A stretch of DNA of 32,000 bases from Ktedonobacterales bacterium (GTDB lineage: Bacteria; Chloroflexota; Ktedonobacteria; Ktedonobacterales; JADMIN01). The stretch lies in the NCBI GenBank assembly GCA_030167145.1, contig CP126532.1:2280001-2312000 (forward strand), read 5' to 3'. Made by a program: the position numbers and the translations under genes. The notes below the pieces were generated by a model. The model made no database searches. It saw only the letters and a list, made by a program, of their open reading frames with translations, and was not told the origin of the DNA. The stretch's first letter is position 1. Each line of letters begins with the position of its first letter. This document shows, piece after piece, positions 17,405 to 25,206 of the stretch.

Positions 17405-17746
17405 ATGGCAACGGAGGTTCATCTCGAAGCTATCGTCCAGACGGGCGGGAAGATCGAGCTTGCTCTCCCCGACCTCATGCCTGGCCAGAGAGTCAAGGTT
17501 ACCATTGAGATCGCAGACGAGACTTCGGCTACTACTGCGTGGGAACAAGAGCATGGGCAAGATACAACGCCTGCTCCACCACGCCGGTATACGGCCCTCG
17601 AACTGATGAAGCTGCCACTGGCGGAGCGCCATCGCATCTTGGAGGAAGCTGCTGAAGAAGCTGCCGAAGAATATCGCACAAACCCAGAACTGACAGATTT
17701 TGAGGCCTTCGGGGAGGACGATTTGTATGACGACCATCCCGAATAG
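17405..17746 (+). CDS. Putative type II antitoxin (MazE position), acidic C-terminus
   Basis: ATG 17405 with GAGGAG 9 nt upstream. Small protein with an N-terminal beta-rich segment (VHLEAIVQTGGKIELALPDLMPGQRVKVTIEI) and an acidic helical tail. Its 3' end overlaps the toxin start by 20 nt. Confidence 0.65.
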   Translation: MATEVHLEAIVQTGGKIELALPDLMPGQRVKVTIEIADETSATTAWEQEHGQDTTPAPPRRYTALELMKLPLAERHRILEEAAEEAAEEYRTNPELTDFEAFGEDDLYDDHPE

Positions 17747-18080
17747 AGGCGAGATATGGATGGTCCAGTTCGATCCACAAGTGGCAGAAGAAATCGGCAA
17801 GTTACGACCTGCTGTTGTCGTCAGCGTGCCTGCCGTGGGGCGATTGCCGCTGCGGATCGTCGTCCCACTCACTGACTGGAAGCCGCGTTATGCGAATTTC
17901 CGGTGGTTCATTCATGTCACACGGACAGCAGAGGATGGCTTGGCGAAAGACTCTGGCGCAGACGCTTTTCAGATAGAGTCATTATCCATCCAGCGTTTTC
18001 GGAGTAAGCTCGGCATAGTCACAACAGCACAGATAGATGAAATTGCCGCTGCCATCGCGCTCTGTGTCGGTATGCCATAG
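17727..18080 (+). CDS. mazF: Type II toxin, PemK/MazF family endoribonuclease
   Basis: PNRGEIWMVQFDPQVAEEIGKLRPAVVVS is the family's signature N-terminus. ATG 17727 with GGAGG about 10 nt upstream. Confidence 0.88.
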   Translation: MTTIPNRGEIWMVQFDPQVAEEIGKLRPAVVVSVPAVGRLPLRIVVPLTDWKPRYANFRWFIHVTRTAEDGLAKDSGADAFQIESLSIQRFRSKLGIVTTAQIDEIAAAIALCVGMP

Positions 18081-20708: not shown

Positions 20709-20744
20709 CCTAACCCCCAACCCCTTCCCTTGTAGGGAAGGGGT
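20709..20744. repeat. REP-like element copy C (CCTAACCCCCAACCCCTTCCCT-TGT-AGGGAAGGGGT)
   Basis: 10-bp stem 20721-20730 / 20734-20743, with the same conserved 5' flank as copies A and B. Confidence 0.6.
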
Positions 20745-20825
20745 GAACGGACAAGCACGAATGTCCGCCTCACCAGGGAAGGGGTGAACGGACAAGCACG
20801 AATGTCCGCCTCACCAGGGAAGGGG
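20734..20825. repeat. Perfect 41-bp tandem repeat (2.2 copies)
   Basis: Unit AGGGAAGGGGTGAACGGACAAGCACGAATGTCCGCCTCACC at 20734-20774 and 20775-20815 (identical), with a partial third copy at 20816-20825. The unit begins with the right arm of REP copy C and contains its own CGGACA/TGTCCG hairpin. Confidence 0.9.
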
Positions 20826-20864
20826 AGAAAGGAGAGAATCGCCGCCCACTTGAACACCTGTATG

Positions 20865-20873: not shown

Positions 20874-20956
20874 GGCAGGGTGCGCCGCCGCAAAATACCG
20901 TAGCTCATGCTGGTCCGATCCATGGGCAGTCCAGTCACATATAAGGAGCCGCATTC

Positions 20957-23900
20957 GTGGAGGATCTCGCCCGTCCGCGCCACACCGCGCACCGGCTCTT
21001 GCGCTGGCTCGCGGACGAACTGCGCGCACCGCTCTCTGAGGCGACGCCGATAGATGCGCTGGCCGAACGCCTGGGCCTGGATGTGGCGCTGTTCCCGCCG
21101 CAGGGCCGTCGCACACAGACGCTTGGCTGGCTGGAACCCGGTGAAAATCTGATCTTCCTGCGCGATGGCCTGCCTGAGCCGGTGCGCCGCTTTACCCTGG
21201 CCCACGAGATCGGCCATGCGGTGCTGCACCGCCCTGGCGGGCTGCCGCTGGCCCTGGGCGGTAGCCTCCCCAACGTCCGCGACGATGCCTTTGACAGCGG
21301 TATACCGGACTGCGACGACGGCGATTTCGCGCTGCCGCTCGACCCGGAAGCCGCCACAGGCGAAACGCTTGGCTCCGGCCAGGCCTACAGCGCACGCGCA
21401 CGCCGCGAGAGCGAGGCCAATGCCTTTGCCTCGGCGCTGCTGCTGCCCACCGAAACGCTGCTCGCGGCGTATCTTGCTCATCCCTATGGCAGGCGCCCGC
21501 AGCCGCGCATGCTCGCTCGCCGCTTTGGTGTCTCGGAAGACATGCTGCTGCGCCGCCTGGCCGATCTGCTGGCGCTGCGCGCTCGCAATGAGCGGGACGA
21601 TGACGAGCCAGCGCCAGTGATAGCCGCGAGCGCCGTCCAGCGGTTCGACGTGCTTGACCGCTGGCAGCGCGCCGCCGCCGAAGCCAATGCGCCCGCGCTG
21701 GTCGTCGCTGGCCCCGGCACGGGCAAAACGAGCACACTCGTCGCCCGCGTCGCCTATCTGGTGCGGCAATGCGGCGTCGCGCCGGAGCGCATTCTCGCGC
21801 TGACCTTCTCCAATAAGGCCGCCAACGAAATGCGCGAGCGGCTGATGCATTTGCTGCTTGCGCCTGACCCGTCATCAGGGGCTGCGGTCGCCGATCTTCG
21901 CGGGTTGCCGACGGTCAGCACCATCCATGCGTTCTGTGGCGATCTGCTGCGCCGCTATGCGCCGCTGGCCGGTCTGCGCCCGGATTTCCGCCTTGTCAGC
22001 GAGACCGACGGGTATTTCCTGTTGCGCAACCTTTCCGCTGAGCTGGCGCTGAATCACTATCAGCCGCTCAGCGCCCCCGCGCTGCACTTCCCGACGCTGC
22101 TCGGCGCTATCTCGCGCGCTAAAGACGAGCTGGCTGGACCCGAACGCTACGCCGCCGTCGCCCACACGCTGAGCGAGGCCGCTGACTCACCAGAGGCGCG
22201 CGAGGCCGCCGAGAAATCGCGTGAAGTCGCCAGCATCTACAGCGCCTATCAGGCCGCGCTGGATGCGCGCGGTGACGCCGACTTCGGCGACCTGATTCGC
22301 CTGGCTGTGCGGCTGCTGCGTGAGCAACCCGACGTGCTCGCCGCCGTGCATGGGCAGTATCAGCACATCCTGGTGGACGAGTTTCAGGACATCAACCGGG
22401 CGATGGGCGTGCTGCTGCGTACCCTTGCCAGTGATGAGAGTCGCCTCTGGGCCGTGGGTGACGCCAACCAGGCGATTTACCGCTTCCGGGGGGCGTCGCC
22501 TGCTAATCTTGCCCGTTTCAACGTCGAATATCCTGCCGCGCAGGTTCATACCCTACAGCAAAACTACCGCTCGGTGCCCGCCGTGCTGGACGCCGCCGCC
22601 GGTGTCGCTGCCGCCTTCCTCGAACGCGACGAAGCGCGCCCGCTCGCGCCAGCGCGCGCCAGCGCCGATGGTCCCGCGCTCACGCTGGCCAGCGCCGACG
22701 ACGAAGTGGGAGAGATGGCGGGACTGGCCGCCGCGATACGCGCGCATGCCGATGACGGGCGTCCGCTGCGCGATCAGGTGGTGCTTTGCCGCACGCGCCG
22801 CCAGTGTCAGCGTGTCGCCGCCGCGCTGGCCGATATGGGTATTGCTACGCAACTGGTCTCGCCGCTGCTGGACCAGCCGGACGTGAAAGACCTGCTCTCG
22901 GTCGTCGCGCTCGCCGCAGAGCAGAGCGGCATCGGCCTGTTGCGCGCGGGCAACCTGCCAGACCATCCATTCTCGCACTCGGACGCGCGCCTGCTCTTGC
23001 AGCACGCGCAGCGCCAGGGTGTCTCGCCCGTCACGCTGCTGCTGACTGGACTGGACGCCATCCCCGAACTCAGCGCATCGGGCCGACGGGGACTCCAGCG
23101 CCTGAGCCGTGTGCTGGCCGAGCTACGCCAGGCGCCCGACACGCTCACCGGACTCGCGCGCTATGTCTTCGGCTCAACCCGCCTGGGCGCGCGGCTGCTG
23201 GTTGCGGTCCCCACGGGCGACGAACGCGCCACCGCGCACGCGCTGCACCTGATCCAACTGCTAGCGCTCACCGCCAGCTTTGAGGAGCATCAGCGCGCTC
23301 AGCGCCTCGTCAGCGGCAGCGCCGCGCGGCCCGCTTCGCAGCTCGCCGATTGGCATGCCTTGCTCGATTATATTCGCGTGGTCTCGGTGCTGCGGCAGGA
23401 AGCGCGCAGCGACAACGGAGATGGCCCTGGCGAGACGGATGAGCGTGTGCGCGTGCTCACCGTTCACGCCAGCAAAGGGCTGGAATTTCCGGTCGTGTAT
23501 GTGCCCGGACTTGCCGACCGCCGCTTCCCGATGCAGCGCCGGGGCAACGCCGCGCCGCTGCCGCCGGGCCTCAGCGAAGATGACGAGTGCGAGCAGCGCG
23601 ACCCCAACGCGCACCTCGCGGAAGAAGCCTGCCTCTTCTACGTCGCCGTCACCCGCGCCCGCGACGAACTGATTCTCAGCCATGCCGACCGCTATGGGCG
23701 CATGCGCTACAAGCCTTCGCCGTTTCTTGCGCCCATCGCCGAGCGCCTGGGCGACCGGCTGCGCCATATCCGCTGGCCAGATGAGGAAGCGACGCTCTCC
23801 CGAGGCGTGTCCGGGGAGCGCACGACGACGCCCACGCGCGCCTATGTGGAGCCGCTGCCCGCGCCCGCGCCGGATGCCGCTATCTCGCCCGCGGCCATCG

Positions 23901-24838
23901 AGACCTACGGCCGTTGCCCGCGCCAGTTCGCGTATCGCTATGTCTATGGCCTCAAACCGCGCGAGATCGGCATGATGACCCTGCGCCGGGCGCTGCACAA
24001 TACCCTGCGCGACCTGCGGCAACAAGTTCATTTCGCTGCACCCACCGCCCCCGACGCCAACGGCGATACACTCACCGGCACACCCGGCGGCCTCACCCTG
24101 CGCGACACGCTCGCCCTCTTCGAGACGCACTGGCACACGGCGCTGCTCTACGAGCGCGGCGAGTTCGCCGCAAAATCGGTGGCTTCGGTCACTGAGGGCG
24201 CCGCTGTTTCGGCAGATCCGGCGACTGCGGCAACTCCGGACATCGAAAGCGATCCGTTTGTCGAGGTCTACCGGCGGCATGGACGGCAGGTGATCGAGCG
24301 GGCGTGGCTCACGCTGACGCAGGCCACCCCGCCACAGCATCCCGTGGATGAACTGGACGCTTCGGCGCGCTTCGAGCACTCCGTCACTGTGCAGATTGGC
24401 AACCGGCAGATCGCCCTGACGGTAGATCGTGTCGAGCCGGAGGCTGAGCCACCCGTTGCGGCTCCCGCGCCCACATCCGCACCGAATGGCAGACGCGCCG
24501 GGCAGAGCGAACGCGCAGCCAATGCGCAGCCACTGCGCTATGTGCGCCACCGCGTCGGCCCCAGCCGCGCCGCTCAGGCCGACCTCCGGGCGCTGCTCTA
24601 CACCCTCGCCGCCGAACAGACCGCCGAGCAATCCACCCGGCAGGCGCGCCCCGTGCTCTATCAGCATAATCTCAGCACCGGCGAGGTGGAGCGTGTAGAA
24701 TTAGACACACGCAAGCTCACGCGACTCCGCGAAAATCTGGTGGATATTCTGGCGGGCATGGAGAGCGGCATCTATCCGCCACGACCCGACCCCAATACGT
24801 GCCAGAACTGCCCGTTCCTGCTCGTTTGCCCTGCATAG
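20957..24838 (+). CDS. Fusion protein: ImmA/IrrE (COG2856) Zn-metallopeptidase domain + UvrD/PcrA-type SF1 helicase + C-terminal Cas4/AddB-like 4-Cys PD-(D/E)XK-type module
   Basis: GTG 20957 with AAGGAG 8 nt upstream. Peptidase: FTLAHEIGHAVLH (HEIGH at 21203-21217) and ESEANAFASALLLP. Helicase motifs: GPGTGKT, LTFSNKAANEM, TIHAFC, LVDEFQD, VGDANQAIYRFRGA, QNYRS, TVHASKGLEFPVV, FYVAVTRARDEL. C-terminus: YGRCPRQFAYRY ... TVDRVE ... C-QN-C-PFLLV-C. Confidence 0.85.
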   Translation: MEDLARPRHTAHRLLRWLADELRAPLSEATPIDALAERLGLDVALFPPQGRRTQTLGWLEPGENLIFLRDGLPEPVRRFTLAHEIGHAVLHRPGGLPLALGGSLPNVRDDAFDSGIPDCDDGDFALPLDPEAATGETLGSGQAYSARARRESEANAFASALLLPTETLLAAYLAHPYGRRPQPRMLARRFGVSEDMLLRRLADLLALRARNERDDDEPAPVIAASAVQRFDVLDRWQRAAAEANAPALVVAGPGTGKTSTLVARVAYLVRQCGVAPERILALTFSNKAANEMRERLMHLLLAPDPSSGAAVADLRGLPTVSTIHAFCGDLLRRYAPLAGLRPDFRLVSETDGYFLLRNLSAELALNHYQPLSAPALHFPTLLGAISRAKDELAGPERYAAVAHTLSEAADSPEAREAAEKSREVASIYSAYQAALDARGDADFGDLIRLAVRLLREQPDVLAAVHGQYQHILVDEFQDINRAMGVLLRTLASDESRLWAVGDANQAIYRFRGASPANLARFNVEYPAAQVHTLQQNYRSVPAVLDAAAGVAAAFLERDEARPLAPARASADGPALTLASADDEVGEMAGLAAAIRAHADDGRPLRDQVVLCRTRRQCQRVAAALADMGIATQLVSPLLDQPDVKDLLSVVALAAEQSGIGLLRAGNLPDHPFSHSDARLLLQHAQRQGVSPVTLLLTGLDAIPELSASGRRGLQRLSRVLAELRQAPDTLTGLARYVFGSTRLGARLLVAVPTGDERATAHALHLIQLLALTASFEEHQRAQRLVSGSAARPASQLADWHALLDYIRVVSVLRQEARSDNGDGPGETDERVRVLTVHASKGLEFPVVYVPGLADRRFPMQRRGNAAPLPPGLSEDDECEQRDPNAHLAEEACLFYVAVTRARDELILSHADRYGRMRYKPSPFLAPIAERLGDRLRHIRWPDEEATLSRGVSGERTTTPTRAYVEPLPAPAPDAAISPAAIETYGRCPRQFAYRYVYGLKPREIGMMTLRRALHNTLRDLRQQVHFAAPTAPDANGDTLTGTPGGLTLRDTLALFETHWHTALLYERGEFAAKSVASVTEGAAVSADPATAATPDIESDPFVEVYRRHGRQVIERAWLTLTQATPPQHPVDELDASARFEHSVTVQIGNRQIALTVDRVEPEAEPPVAAPAPTSAPNGRRAGQSERAANAQPLRYVRHRVGPSRAAQADLRALLYTLAAEQTAEQSTRQARPVLYQHNLSTGEVERVELDTRKLTRLRENLVDILAGMESGIYPPRPDPNTCQNCPFLLVCPA

Positions 24839-24860
24839 CCTGTCACTCAAAGGAGGCGTC

Positions 24861-25118
24861 ATGTCTGGCTCAGTCACCGTTCATACCTGCTACATCGCCG
24901 AATTCCCGCATGCCCTGCCGCACCGCGAAGAGGCGACGCTGCGCCCCTGCGGCCACTATGCCTGCGACCCGCACACCATCACCTATTACGGCACCGGCGA
25001 AGAGGGCGACAGCCGCGAGGGCGACTATTGCATGGTCTGCTATGAGCGCACCTTCCCCGGCATGTGCCCCGATAGAGTGTTGCGCGCCGCGATCCGCACC
25101 GCCGAAACGCAGGCATGA
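24861..25118 (+). CDS. Small cysteine-rich protein (85 aa, 6 Cys; putative Zn-ribbon-like), hypothetical
   Basis: ATG 24861 with AAAGGAGG 5 nt upstream, 22 nt after the helicase stop. Cys pairs C30/C35 and C57-x2-C60, plus C10 and C69. Confidence 0.6.
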   Translation: MSGSVTVHTCYIAEFPHALPHREEATLRPCGHYACDPHTITYYGTGEEGDSREGDYCMVCYERTFPGMCPDRVLRAAIRTAETQA

Positions 25119-25122
25119 AGAG

Positions 25123-25206
25123 GTAGGGGCGTCCGGCGCGCCAGCGGGCGTCCGGCGCGCCAGCGGGCGTCCGCCGCGCCAACGGGCGTCCGCCGGACGC
25201 CCCTAC
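25123..25206. terminator. GC-rich composite hairpin: 16-bp inverted repeat enclosing 19-bp tandem repeats
   Basis: GTAGGGGCGTCCGGCG (25123-25138) pairs with CGCCGGACGCCCCTAC (25191-25206). Inside are GGGCGTCCGGCGCGCCAGC x2 (25127-25164), a variant at 25165-25183, and a self-palindromic unit GGGCGTCCG-C-CGGACGCCC (25184-25202). No U-tract, so terminator function is uncertain. Confidence 0.4.

Follow-up and report, generated by a model that had tools for sequence, protein, structure and literature searches.

A CapP-like M78 peptidase fused to a UvrD/PcrA-type helicase and a predicted nuclease-inactive iron-sulfur domain in Ktedonobacteria, and its sister clade beside Bil/Bub operons

Introduction

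Peptidases of the M78 family (ImmA, IrrE, CapP) are proteolytic switches for the induction of prophages and of integrative and conjugative elements, for the radiation response of Deinococcus, and for many immune operons. Only recently has single-stranded DNA (ssDNA) been shown to be a direct activator of M78 peptidases. CapP, which has the active-site residues H97, E98, H101, and E128, is directly activated by ssDNA, the binding of which displaces a zinc-capping cysteine switch loop consisting of C114, D117, and D118 (PMC13228613), and IrrE/PprI is directly stimulated by ssDNA as well (PMC10904395). A GAF domain forms half of the ssDNA-binding groove in both CapP and IrrE. Together with CapH, CapP derepresses CBASS (anti-phage signaling based on cyclic oligonucleotides), Bil, and Bub immune operons, and many Bil/Bub operons are controlled from an upstream position by the DNA-damage-responsive regulators CapH+CapP, CapW, or CapK+CapS. 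Here we describe a gene that encodes a peptidase of this kind in one polypeptide with a UvrD/PcrA-type helicase and a Cas4-like iron-sulfur (Fe-S) domain. It lies in a stretch of 32,000 nt from a Ktedonobacterales bacterium (assembly GCA_030167145.1, contig CP126532.1, positions 2,280,001 to 2,312,000 of the forward strand; hereafter the window). The fusion is conserved across Ktedonobacteria, has a sister clade in Bil/Bub operons, and may be a protease whose activity is licensed by DNA.

Results

Architecture and conservation of the fusion

An earlier note on this DNA, made from the sequence alone, had described an uninterrupted reading frame of 1293 codons preceded by AAGGAG-N8-GTG, which was confirmed (Table 1). 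All four models of the hidden Markov model (HMM) scan that it had proposed (PF06114, PF00580, PF13361, and PDDEXK_1) matched, giving the 1293-amino acid (aa) product the domain set Peptidase_M78, UvrD-helicase, UvrD_C, and PDDEXK_1. A search of 5.8 billion proteins revealed >110 clusters, named Ktedonobacterales, that share this Pfam set and match over the full length with 42 to 60% identity, and 105 full-length relatives make up the conservation alignment. In addition, one genome per GTDB species was scanned with the N-terminal domain, followed by tblastn. The peptidase, helicase, and C-terminal domain are contiguous in 24 Ktedonobacteria species, including Thermogemmatispora tikiterensis T81, Dictyobacter alpinus Uno16, and Ktedonobacteria bacterium brp13, and the open reading frame (ORF) is uninterrupted in 21 of 23 species-level loci. 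A protein identical to that of the window (P0001) is present on a 5.07-Mb contig of Joint Genome Institute (JGI) metagenome 3300045419. Because uninterrupted orthologues are found in these loci and in >100 protein clusters, an assembly artefact, a mis-join, or a frameshift between peptidase and helicase was rejected, and the fusion described in the note is real; it is also conserved.

Judging by the contig names, the interruptions in the remaining copies (L013, L015, and the separately found L085) are probable indel errors in long-read metagenome-assembled genomes. In L085 (5301-9111), the ORF breaks in the linker, and the helicase is read in another frame than the 229-aa peptidase. A natural split version of the fusion, if real, would be informative.

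Table 1. Features of the fusion gene and its surroundings in the window, and cassette loci of the sister clade
Feature	Position	Strand	Basis
Whole fusion gene	20957..24838	+	GTG start, 1293 codons and stop, one uninterrupted ORF
Ribosome-binding site AAGGAG	20943..20948	+	Read from sequence; 8 nt spacing to GTG
CapP/IrrE-type M78 zinc-peptidase domain with helical, helix-turn-helix (HTH)-like tail (aa 1-205)	20957..21571	+	PF06114; profile matches to CapP and IrrE
HEIGH zinc/catalytic motif (H83, E84, H87)	21203..21217	+	Invariant in 105/105 relatives, 21/21 species loci, 70/70 sister-clade proteins (E84 69/70)
C119-x3-D123 loop, candidate cysteine switch between HExxH and third zinc ligand	21311..21325	+	Alignment position
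E151-S-E-A-N-A-F-A-S-A-L-L-L-P block; E151, presumed third zinc ligand	21407..21448	+	E151 aligns with CapP E128/E131
Variable low-complexity linker at peptidase/helicase junction (aa 206-232)	21572..21652	+	Columns unconserved in alignment; L085 breaks here
UvrD/PcrA-type superfamily 1A (SF1A) helicase core (aa 233-934), motifs all intact	21653..23758	+	PF00580, PF13361; invariant motif residues
Cas4/AdnA/AddB-like Fe-S PD-(D/E)XK-fold domain (aa 935-1293), predicted nuclease-inactive	23759..24835	+	AlphaFold2 model, Foldseek, Pfam
C987, first Fe-S cysteine (GRCPRQFAY)	23915..23917	+	Invariant in 105 relatives, 21 species loci, 70/70 sister clade
D1157, retained motif II Asp	24425..24427	+	Invariant in 105 relatives; strand beta-2 of model
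V-R1197-H-R1199-V-G at canonical h-(D/E)-x-K-x-G position	24542..24559	+	Strand beta-3, canonical spacing to Y1215
C1282-x2-C1285-x5-C1291, other three Fe-S cysteines	24800..24829	+	Invariant in 105 relatives, 21 species loci, 70/70 sister clade
85-aa Cys/His-rich mini-protein, six Cys	24861..25118	+	Own GGAGG ribosome-binding site; start 22 nt past fusion stop
16-bp perfect inverted repeat (GTAGGGGCGTCCGGCG / CGCCGGACGCCCCTAC) enclosing 3.5 copies of a 19-nt tandem repeat	25123..25206	+	Directly 3' of mini-protein ORF
Cassette loci: sigma-like gene, 195-aa gene, fusion, Bil/Bub	L169 8747-16443; L170 8630-16162; L171 8615-15794; L252 4567-11826; L172-L251	co-directional	

The peptidase domain

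The PF06114 match scores 66.7 bits against a gathering cut-off of 22 and falls in two stretches (∼aa 52-89 and 146-201). Among solved structures, the profile of the N-terminal family matched best to CapP (7t5t, 2.5e-10), next to an HTH-M78 protein, and then to IrrE (3dte, 1.9e-6). The motifs HELGHxxLHR and E-x-x-A-[ND]-x-F-A are common to the fusion family and CapP, and the M78/COG2856 fold and catalytic motifs are shared with the IrrE/PprI-DdrO and ImmA-ImmR systems. The full COG2856 signature noted earlier (HEIGH plus E-x-E-A-N-x-F-A-x-x-L-L-L-P) is present with all catalytic residues kept. Across the 105 full-length relatives, H91, R92, C119, E136, Y144, S145, and R150 are also invariant. 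E151 is invariant in these relatives, in the 21 species loci, and in 70 of 70 proteins of the sister clade introduced below, for which all residue counts are based on 70 representatives. The zinc ligands and the catalytic Glu are thus invariant in 105 + 21 + 70 sequences that span ∼30% identity, which points to selection for catalysis. A Ktedonobacteraceae subgroup (L016, L019-L024, L026, and L028) has HxxLHC in place of HxxLHR at aa 92 of the alignment, which creates a second conserved Cys directly after the zinc motif.

In the fusion family, the loop that separates HExxH from the third zinc ligand has the consensus Cys-x3-Asp-[LVI]. It is kept in 21 of 21 species loci, D123 is found in 103 of the 105 relatives, and the loop Cys is found in 50 of 70 sister-clade proteins with CapP-like spacing. 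In the alignment, its Cys and acidic residues resemble C114, D117, and D118 of CapP in position and chemistry. We infer that the C119/D123 loop may hold the peptidase inactive as a cysteine switch.

Several differences set the fusion apart from the known M78 systems. CapP has a GAF domain, whereas no GAF domain was found in the fusion, in which the helicase starts at ∼aa 233, ∼30 aa past the HTH-like helix (with a linker of ∼27 aa); in its place are a 700-aa helicase and a 360-aa Fe-S domain. IrrE likewise contains a GAF domain and has no cysteine switch, and ImmA of ICEBs1 and of prophages is a stand-alone protein of ∼170 aa. IrrE and ImmA each have a dedicated XRE repressor substrate that is usually encoded next door, whereas no such gene, including one for an XRE-type CapH, lies beside the fusion.

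The helicase core

UvrD-helicase was placed at aa 237-525 (3e-67) and UvrD_C at aa 532-910. The closest solved structure is PcrA (2.4e-66), followed by UvrD1, UvrD, and Rep, with AdnB and AddA being more distant. The claim that every SF1A motif is present, from the Q-region through motif VI, holds, and the motifs are conserved. In the 105 relatives, Walker A GPGTGKT, DEFQD, GDxxQxIYRFRGA, NYRS, TVHxxKGLEF, and VAxTRA are invariant, and the invariant diagnostic residues cover motifs I, II, III, IV, V, and VI; motifs Q, I, and Ia-VI were all found. The fusion thus has the full motif set of PcrA/UvrD/Rep, with two differences: a Cas4-like domain replaces the region after domain 2A, and a peptidase is added at the N terminus.

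Family members are publicly annotated as PcrA/UvrD-like, and the core is indeed closest to PcrA/UvrD. This raises the question of whether the protein is simply a repair helicase of that type, in which the appended terminal domains serve structure or regulation and not proteolysis, much as the nuclease appendage has already lost catalysis (see below). The NCBIfam equivalog models argue otherwise. The scores were 318.7 bits for pcrA (cut-off 911 bits) and 223.5 bits for uvrD (cut-off 1144 bits). A PcrA orthologue was therefore ruled out at approximately one-third of the cut-off, and the protein is a distinct paralogue, not the housekeeping PcrA. The invariance of the peptidase zinc ligands and catalytic Glu speaks against a non-proteolytic role in the same way, and we consider the repair-helicase explanation quite improbable. 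A known defense system, including Gabija (GajB with a partner such as GajA), was also rejected, since PADLOC yielded only generic GajB/UvrD-core matches for the protein and none for its neighbors.

The C-terminal domain

The last domain matches PDDEXK_1 with 52 bits (cut-off 22). Sequence-only HMM searches of this domain against PDB sequences gave no match, and its placement among solved structures comes only from a fold search. The AlphaFold2 model of aa 935-1293, with a predicted local distance difference test (pLDDT) score of 81, was matched by Foldseek to ACE1 (5e-7), AdnA (7e-5), and AddB (2e-4), as well as to Cas4 SSO0001, Dna2, and Exo5. The four-cysteine arrangement and the fold are those of AdnA, AddB, Cas4, and ACE1. 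The earlier assignment to Fe-S PD-(D/E)XK nucleases was therefore right in part, in that the Cas4/AddB-like fold and the cysteines (GRCPRQFAY and C-x2-C-x5-C) are present, while the catalytic (D/E)xK is missing.

The register of the motifs was taken from the secondary structure of the model and from spacing, not from a residue-level structural alignment. In this register, R1197 occupies the motif III acid position in 105 of 105 relatives, position 1199 is R or K, and the Gln of QxxxY is replaced by Arg (RxxxY), with Y1215 located in the helix after beta-3. Across the 21 species-level Ktedonobacteria loci motif III typically reads F-V-R-T-R-F-G-K, again with Arg at the acid position. At this position, the 70 sister-clade representatives have 48 R, 5 Q, 5 K, and only 3 E. 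An active Cas4/AddB-type nuclease was rejected on the grounds that Arg replaces the metal-binding acid of motif III family-wide, and the DNA-end-processing nuclease activity suggested in the note finds no support for the same reason. According to the model, the C-terminal domain is very probably not a nuclease. The presence of Arg at motif III in both clades indicates that the dead nuclease is ancestral to the whole family.

Like AdnAB, AddAB, and RecBCD, the fusion has a PD-(D/E)XK-fold domain behind a UvrD-type motor. In those systems a partner helicase/nuclease subunit is present; no gene of this type was found beside the fusion among the ORFs of the window by Pfam. Since the fusion has R-x-[RK] for (D/E)xK and RxxxY for QxxxY, end resection by the C-terminal domain is unlikely. 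The role of the domain is probably to hold or guide a strand or an end of DNA instead of cutting it.

A sister clade linked to Bil/Bub operons

When aa 200-1293 were used for an exhaustive HMMER search of 1.84 billion representatives, the top 150 matches scored 344 to 1031 bits. Nearly all of these are 1110 to 1200 aa long, with the helicase starting at ∼residue 190-220, and the Pfam set M78 + UvrD + PDDEXK_1 was found in seven of eight that were sampled. Named members come from Planctomycetota (Stieleria maiorica QEG01558.1, Rubripirellula, Novipirellula, and Phycisphaerae) and from Bradyrhizobium and Hydrocarboniphaga. Others are plasmid-borne in Sinorhizobium, Rhizobium, Agrobacterium, Mesorhizobium, Shinella, Cereibacter, and Robbsia, and 83 plasmid records cover at least 80% of the query. 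Identities of 47 to 57% across phyla suggest horizontal spread of this clade. Between the window protein and its counterpart encoded on the Rhizobium etli plasmid, a single aligned segment runs from HExxH to the first Fe-S Cys (31% identity over 965 aa, E = 6e-98). The note had implied that the architecture is rare; with >110 Ktedonobacterales clusters plus this clade in Bil/Bub operons, the family is in fact large.

A neighbor-joining distance tree built from 662 columns of the helicase core (73 sequences, with generic UvrD proteins as outgroups) shows the family as monophyletic with respect to the outgroups and splits it into a Ktedonobacteria clade (21 species) and the Bil/Bub-linked clade. 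The Ktedonobacteria clade is sister to the latter and not nested within it, a topology from which the ancestral state is not inferable.

In Bradyrhizobium, a Hydrocarboniphaga-type contig, and Stieleria, two genes that are tightly packed or overlap lie upstream of the sister-clade fusion (∼1138 aa); they encode proteins of ∼225-270 aa (up1) and ∼195 aa (up2). Directly 3' of the fusion, on the same strand, is a ubiquitin-like conjugation operon, either Type I/II Bub (multiubiquitin/E2, JAB/ThiF, and DUF6527) or Type II Bil (BilA_UBL_2, BilB-like, a JAB-like gene, and BilD_N). The same cassette appears in the RefSeq annotation of R. etli plasmid pRetNXC12d. The R. etli accessions are WP_086083927.1 for up1, WP_086083928.1 for up2, and WP_086083929.1 for the fusion. 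Up1 matches models of extracytoplasmic function (ECF) sigma factors, with Sigma70_ECF above cut-off in L171 and Sigma70_r4_2 at 2.8e-12. Up2 is soluble and had no Pfam match and no PDB match by profile. A metagenome scan with the N-terminal domain of this clade added 80 loci. Of the 37 loci in which the gene is full-length and followed by at least 3 kb of sequence, 35 have at least two Bil/Bub genes directly downstream on the same strand. Upstream sequence of at least 1.5 kb was available for 59 loci, and among these the 195-aa gene was detected in 43 and the first gene in 41, both of which are lower bounds from tblastn.

The cassette resembles the known Bil/Bub regulators (CapH+CapP, CapW/BrxR, and CapK+CapS) in that its genes lie directly upstream of bilABCD or bubA-E, the position that CapH+CapP holds. 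It differs from them in its composition, which is a sigma-like gene, a 195-aa gene, and the peptidase-helicase fusion. In contrast to CapH+CapP, which is divergent, it is co-directional with the operon and pairs the peptidase with an ECF-sigma-like gene. Neither an M78-UvrD fusion nor a helicase within Bil/Bub operons was found described in the searchable literature, and the earlier statement that no protein of this architecture has been characterized still stands in the literature searched.

Two further observations were made at these loci. On the R. etli plasmid, an AddB/AddA-like pair follows the Bub operon (L252 12007-15396), and an AbiEii system lies 5' of the cassette. In Stieleria, an XRE-HTH-M78 fusion gene of 415 aa that is separate from the cassette is located ∼500 nt upstream of it (L171 6860-8107, -).

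Genomic context in Ktedonobacteria

The window's own clade has no Bil/Bub neighbors. By tblastn (E < 1e-3), no homologue of the sigma-like protein, of the 195-aa protein, or of any Bil/Bub protein was detected in the window or in 27 Ktedonobacteria loci. The fusion gene is flanked in the window by genes for an MFS transporter, MoeA, a HAD hydrolase, ribosomal protein S21, and similar functions, with no mobile-element or defense gene among the flanks according to Pfam and PADLOC scans. No XRE-family HTH gene adjoins the fusion in the window, where the neighbors are MFS, MoeA, and HAD genes. The absence of an adjacent HTH repressor gene, already pointed out in the note, therefore holds, and no conserved HTH, defense, or mobile gene was found beside the fusion across 25 Ktedonobacteria loci.

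Clustering of ORFs from the same 25 loci identified as conserved neighbors a divergent two-transmembrane (2-TM) protein (15 loci), type III pantothenate kinase (coaX, 10 loci), and an acyltransferase (plsC, 10 loci). The 2-TM protein is ∼220 aa long, has two TM helices and no Pfam match, and is encoded 80 to 340 nt 5' of the fusion (e.g., L004 7093-7749, L014 8826-9587, and L024 8854-9612, all on the minus strand). In this block coaX lies upstream and plsC downstream; the block is missing from the window, where an MFS gene is 5' of the fusion. As a partner of the fusion the 2-TM protein was rejected: it travels with coaX/plsC, is missing from the window, and is unrelated to up2, and its position reflects synteny only. 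Control by SOS/LexA was also rejected, as no conserved Cheo-type box and no shared 8-mer were present upstream in 26 loci. A phage origin was rejected because 80 viral M78 loci gave no match to the helicase, the C-terminal domain, or the mini-protein. In the candidate phyla radiation (CPR) loci L031 and L032, an M78 gene is found ∼4 kb from a UvrD gene, unfused.

These contexts bear on two other explanations. The fusion could be a stand-alone anti-phage or anti-plasmid effector, in which the helicase and the Fe-S domain recognize foreign DNA ends or replication intermediates and the peptidase cleaves a host or phage protein with an abortive outcome. The sister clade is found on conjugative plasmids and in defense islands (in which the cassettes of L169-L171 lie), near Bil/Bub, restriction-modification, AbiE, and Zeta toxin genes, and the helicase resembles that of GajB-type defense systems, albeit generically. 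Against this, in the loci examined the Ktedonobacteria fusion appears to be present in a single copy, its grouping matches that of the species, and it is found in coaX/plsC synteny free of mobile or defense neighbors; no specific PADLOC model matches it, and it is missing from the 80 viral loci. An effector of this kind is thus unlikely.

The second explanation is a DNA-tracking protease, in which the motor would move along ssDNA and the tethered peptidase would degrade tightly bound or covalently cross-linked proteins in its way, functionally like SPRTN/Wss1 equipped with a helicase. UvrD/PcrA helicases are established protein-displacing translocases, and here an intact motor is covalently joined to an intact peptidase. 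The housekeeping context of the gene and the lack of a linked, specific substrate gene in Ktedonobacteria would suit such a role. However, the characterized M78 peptidases (ImmA, IrrE, and CapP) all cleave regulators site-specifically and not promiscuously, SprT/Wss1-like features are absent, and the sister clade is linked to immune operons and a sigma-like regulator, not to repair genes. We assign this explanation a low probability.

The downstream mini-protein and nearby repeats

The note had proposed the Cys-rich mini-protein encoded behind the fusion as a partner or substrate. Its family comprises 103 clusters with 58 to 84% identity, a very strong conservation, and occurs only in Ktedonobacteria-type sequences. 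C10, H17, H21, C30, H32, C35, H38, and C57 are invariant and C60 nearly so, and these nine Cys/His residues suggest two zinc sites. The AlphaFold2 model (pLDDT 88) had no significant PDB fold match and weak matches to RING/FYVE-type zinc fingers. The inverted repeat directly after the mini-protein ORF is likely, from its sequence, to be a GC-rich terminator that lacks a T tract and ends a two-gene transcription unit; the fusion and the mini-protein gene are thus probably cotranscribed.

A dedicated partnership would be in line with the short gap between the genes, the separate ribosome-binding site, the terminator-like hairpin common to both genes, the conservation of the mini-protein, and the adjacency of the two genes in the window, L004, and L005. 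The adjacency is restricted to these three loci, however. In 22 of 25 species loci, no mini-protein gene lies within 7 to 10 kb of the fusion; these loci include L002, the fusion of which is 58% identical. In three of three more distant genomes, the mini-protein gene follows unrelated genes in a variable neighborhood. No homologue was found across the whole sister clade. The adjacency is local synteny and no evidence of partnership, and we regard the mini-protein as a very improbable partner or substrate.

On the 5' side of the fusion gene, an intergenic 41-nt tandem repeat (2.4 copies, 96% identical) occupies window positions 20734-20833, 125 to 220 nt from the gene. Each unit holds the hairpin GGACA-N8-TGTCC, the repeat occurs nowhere else in the window, and it is preceded by the stem CCCCTTCCCT/AGGGAAGGGG. 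No known RNA elements were found in the window. An apparent type II toxin-antitoxin pair, consisting of a 113-aa ORF and then a 106-aa PemK_toxin gene, is located ∼3 kb 5' of the fusion (window ∼17405-18080, +).

Discussion

The reading that we favor, while ranking it as a serious possibility still short of probable, is that the fusion is a DNA-licensed regulatory protease, present in the window as an orphaned, vertically inherited, chromosomal, and stand-alone copy. The CapP/IrrE-type peptidase would start out inhibited by the C119/D123 loop, and the UvrD/PcrA-type 3'-5' ssDNA motor would take the place of the GAF sensor domain. First, the motor and the Fe-S domain would engage ssDNA or a DNA end; next, ssDNA beside the peptidase would displace the switch loop; and finally, the peptidase would cleave a specific regulatory protein. 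The note had considered DNA sensing by ImmA/IrrE proteases to be mostly indirect, a view that is out of date now that CapP and IrrE are known to be directly activated by ssDNA (PMC13228613, PMC10904395). This activation, the CapP-like nature of the M78 domain, and the Cys/Asp loop at the switch position make it more plausible that DNA engagement licenses proteolysis. The co-operonic ECF-sigma-like protein and the ∼195-aa protein would be the likely targets in the sister clade, and the likely output there would be expression or activation of the Bil/Bub operon. The Ktedonobacteria copy has no cassette neighbors and is inherited vertically among housekeeping genes, for which reason it would most likely be a chromosomal sensor of ssDNA or DNA damage, with its substrate encoded elsewhere.

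Several observations weigh against a DNA-licensed regulatory protease. The switch loop in Ktedonobacteria is ∼20 aa longer than that of CapP, and the loop Cys is lacking in 20 of 70 sister-clade members. The GAF domain of CapP also contacts the substrate, so substrate recognition must differ in the fusion. No XRE, sigma, or up2 homologue that could serve as a substrate candidate was found in the window or in 27 related loci, and no conserved operator or LexA-type box was found 5' of the fusion gene in 26 loci. Furthermore, the sister-clade fusion is co-directional with and within the immune operon, and it could be an effector or a conjugation target instead of a regulator.

A broader proposal, which we put forward more speculatively and consider somewhat unlikely as a whole, is that the entire family is an unrecognized class of DNA sensor, in which a UvrD motor and a nuclease-dead Fe-S domain unlock a CapP-like cysteine-switch protease. 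In Proteobacteria and Planctomycetota, it would cleave the 195-aa or the ECF-sigma-like protein and thereby turn on Bil/Bub, as a fourth type of regulator beside CapH+CapP, CapW, and CapK+CapS. In Ktedonobacteria, it would be a domesticated, class-wide damage switch with a substrate encoded elsewhere.

The architecture described here is a widespread and uncharacterized variant of the known ssDNA-activated M78 peptidase switch, and the searchable literature contains no report of a link between it and ubiquitin-like immune operons. As a peptidase welded to an ssDNA motor that replaces the usual sensor, the fusion provides natural "Rosetta-stone" evidence for the connection between ssDNA and M78 peptidases, and its single polypeptide allows DNA engagement, ATP hydrolysis, and proteolysis to be studied jointly. 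The near-obligate location of the sister clade between a sigma-like regulator and Bil/Bub operons makes it an undescribed conserved component of these loci. For Ktedonobacteria, the fusion represents a class-wide genome-maintenance or signaling gene that is currently misannotated as PcrA/UvrD.

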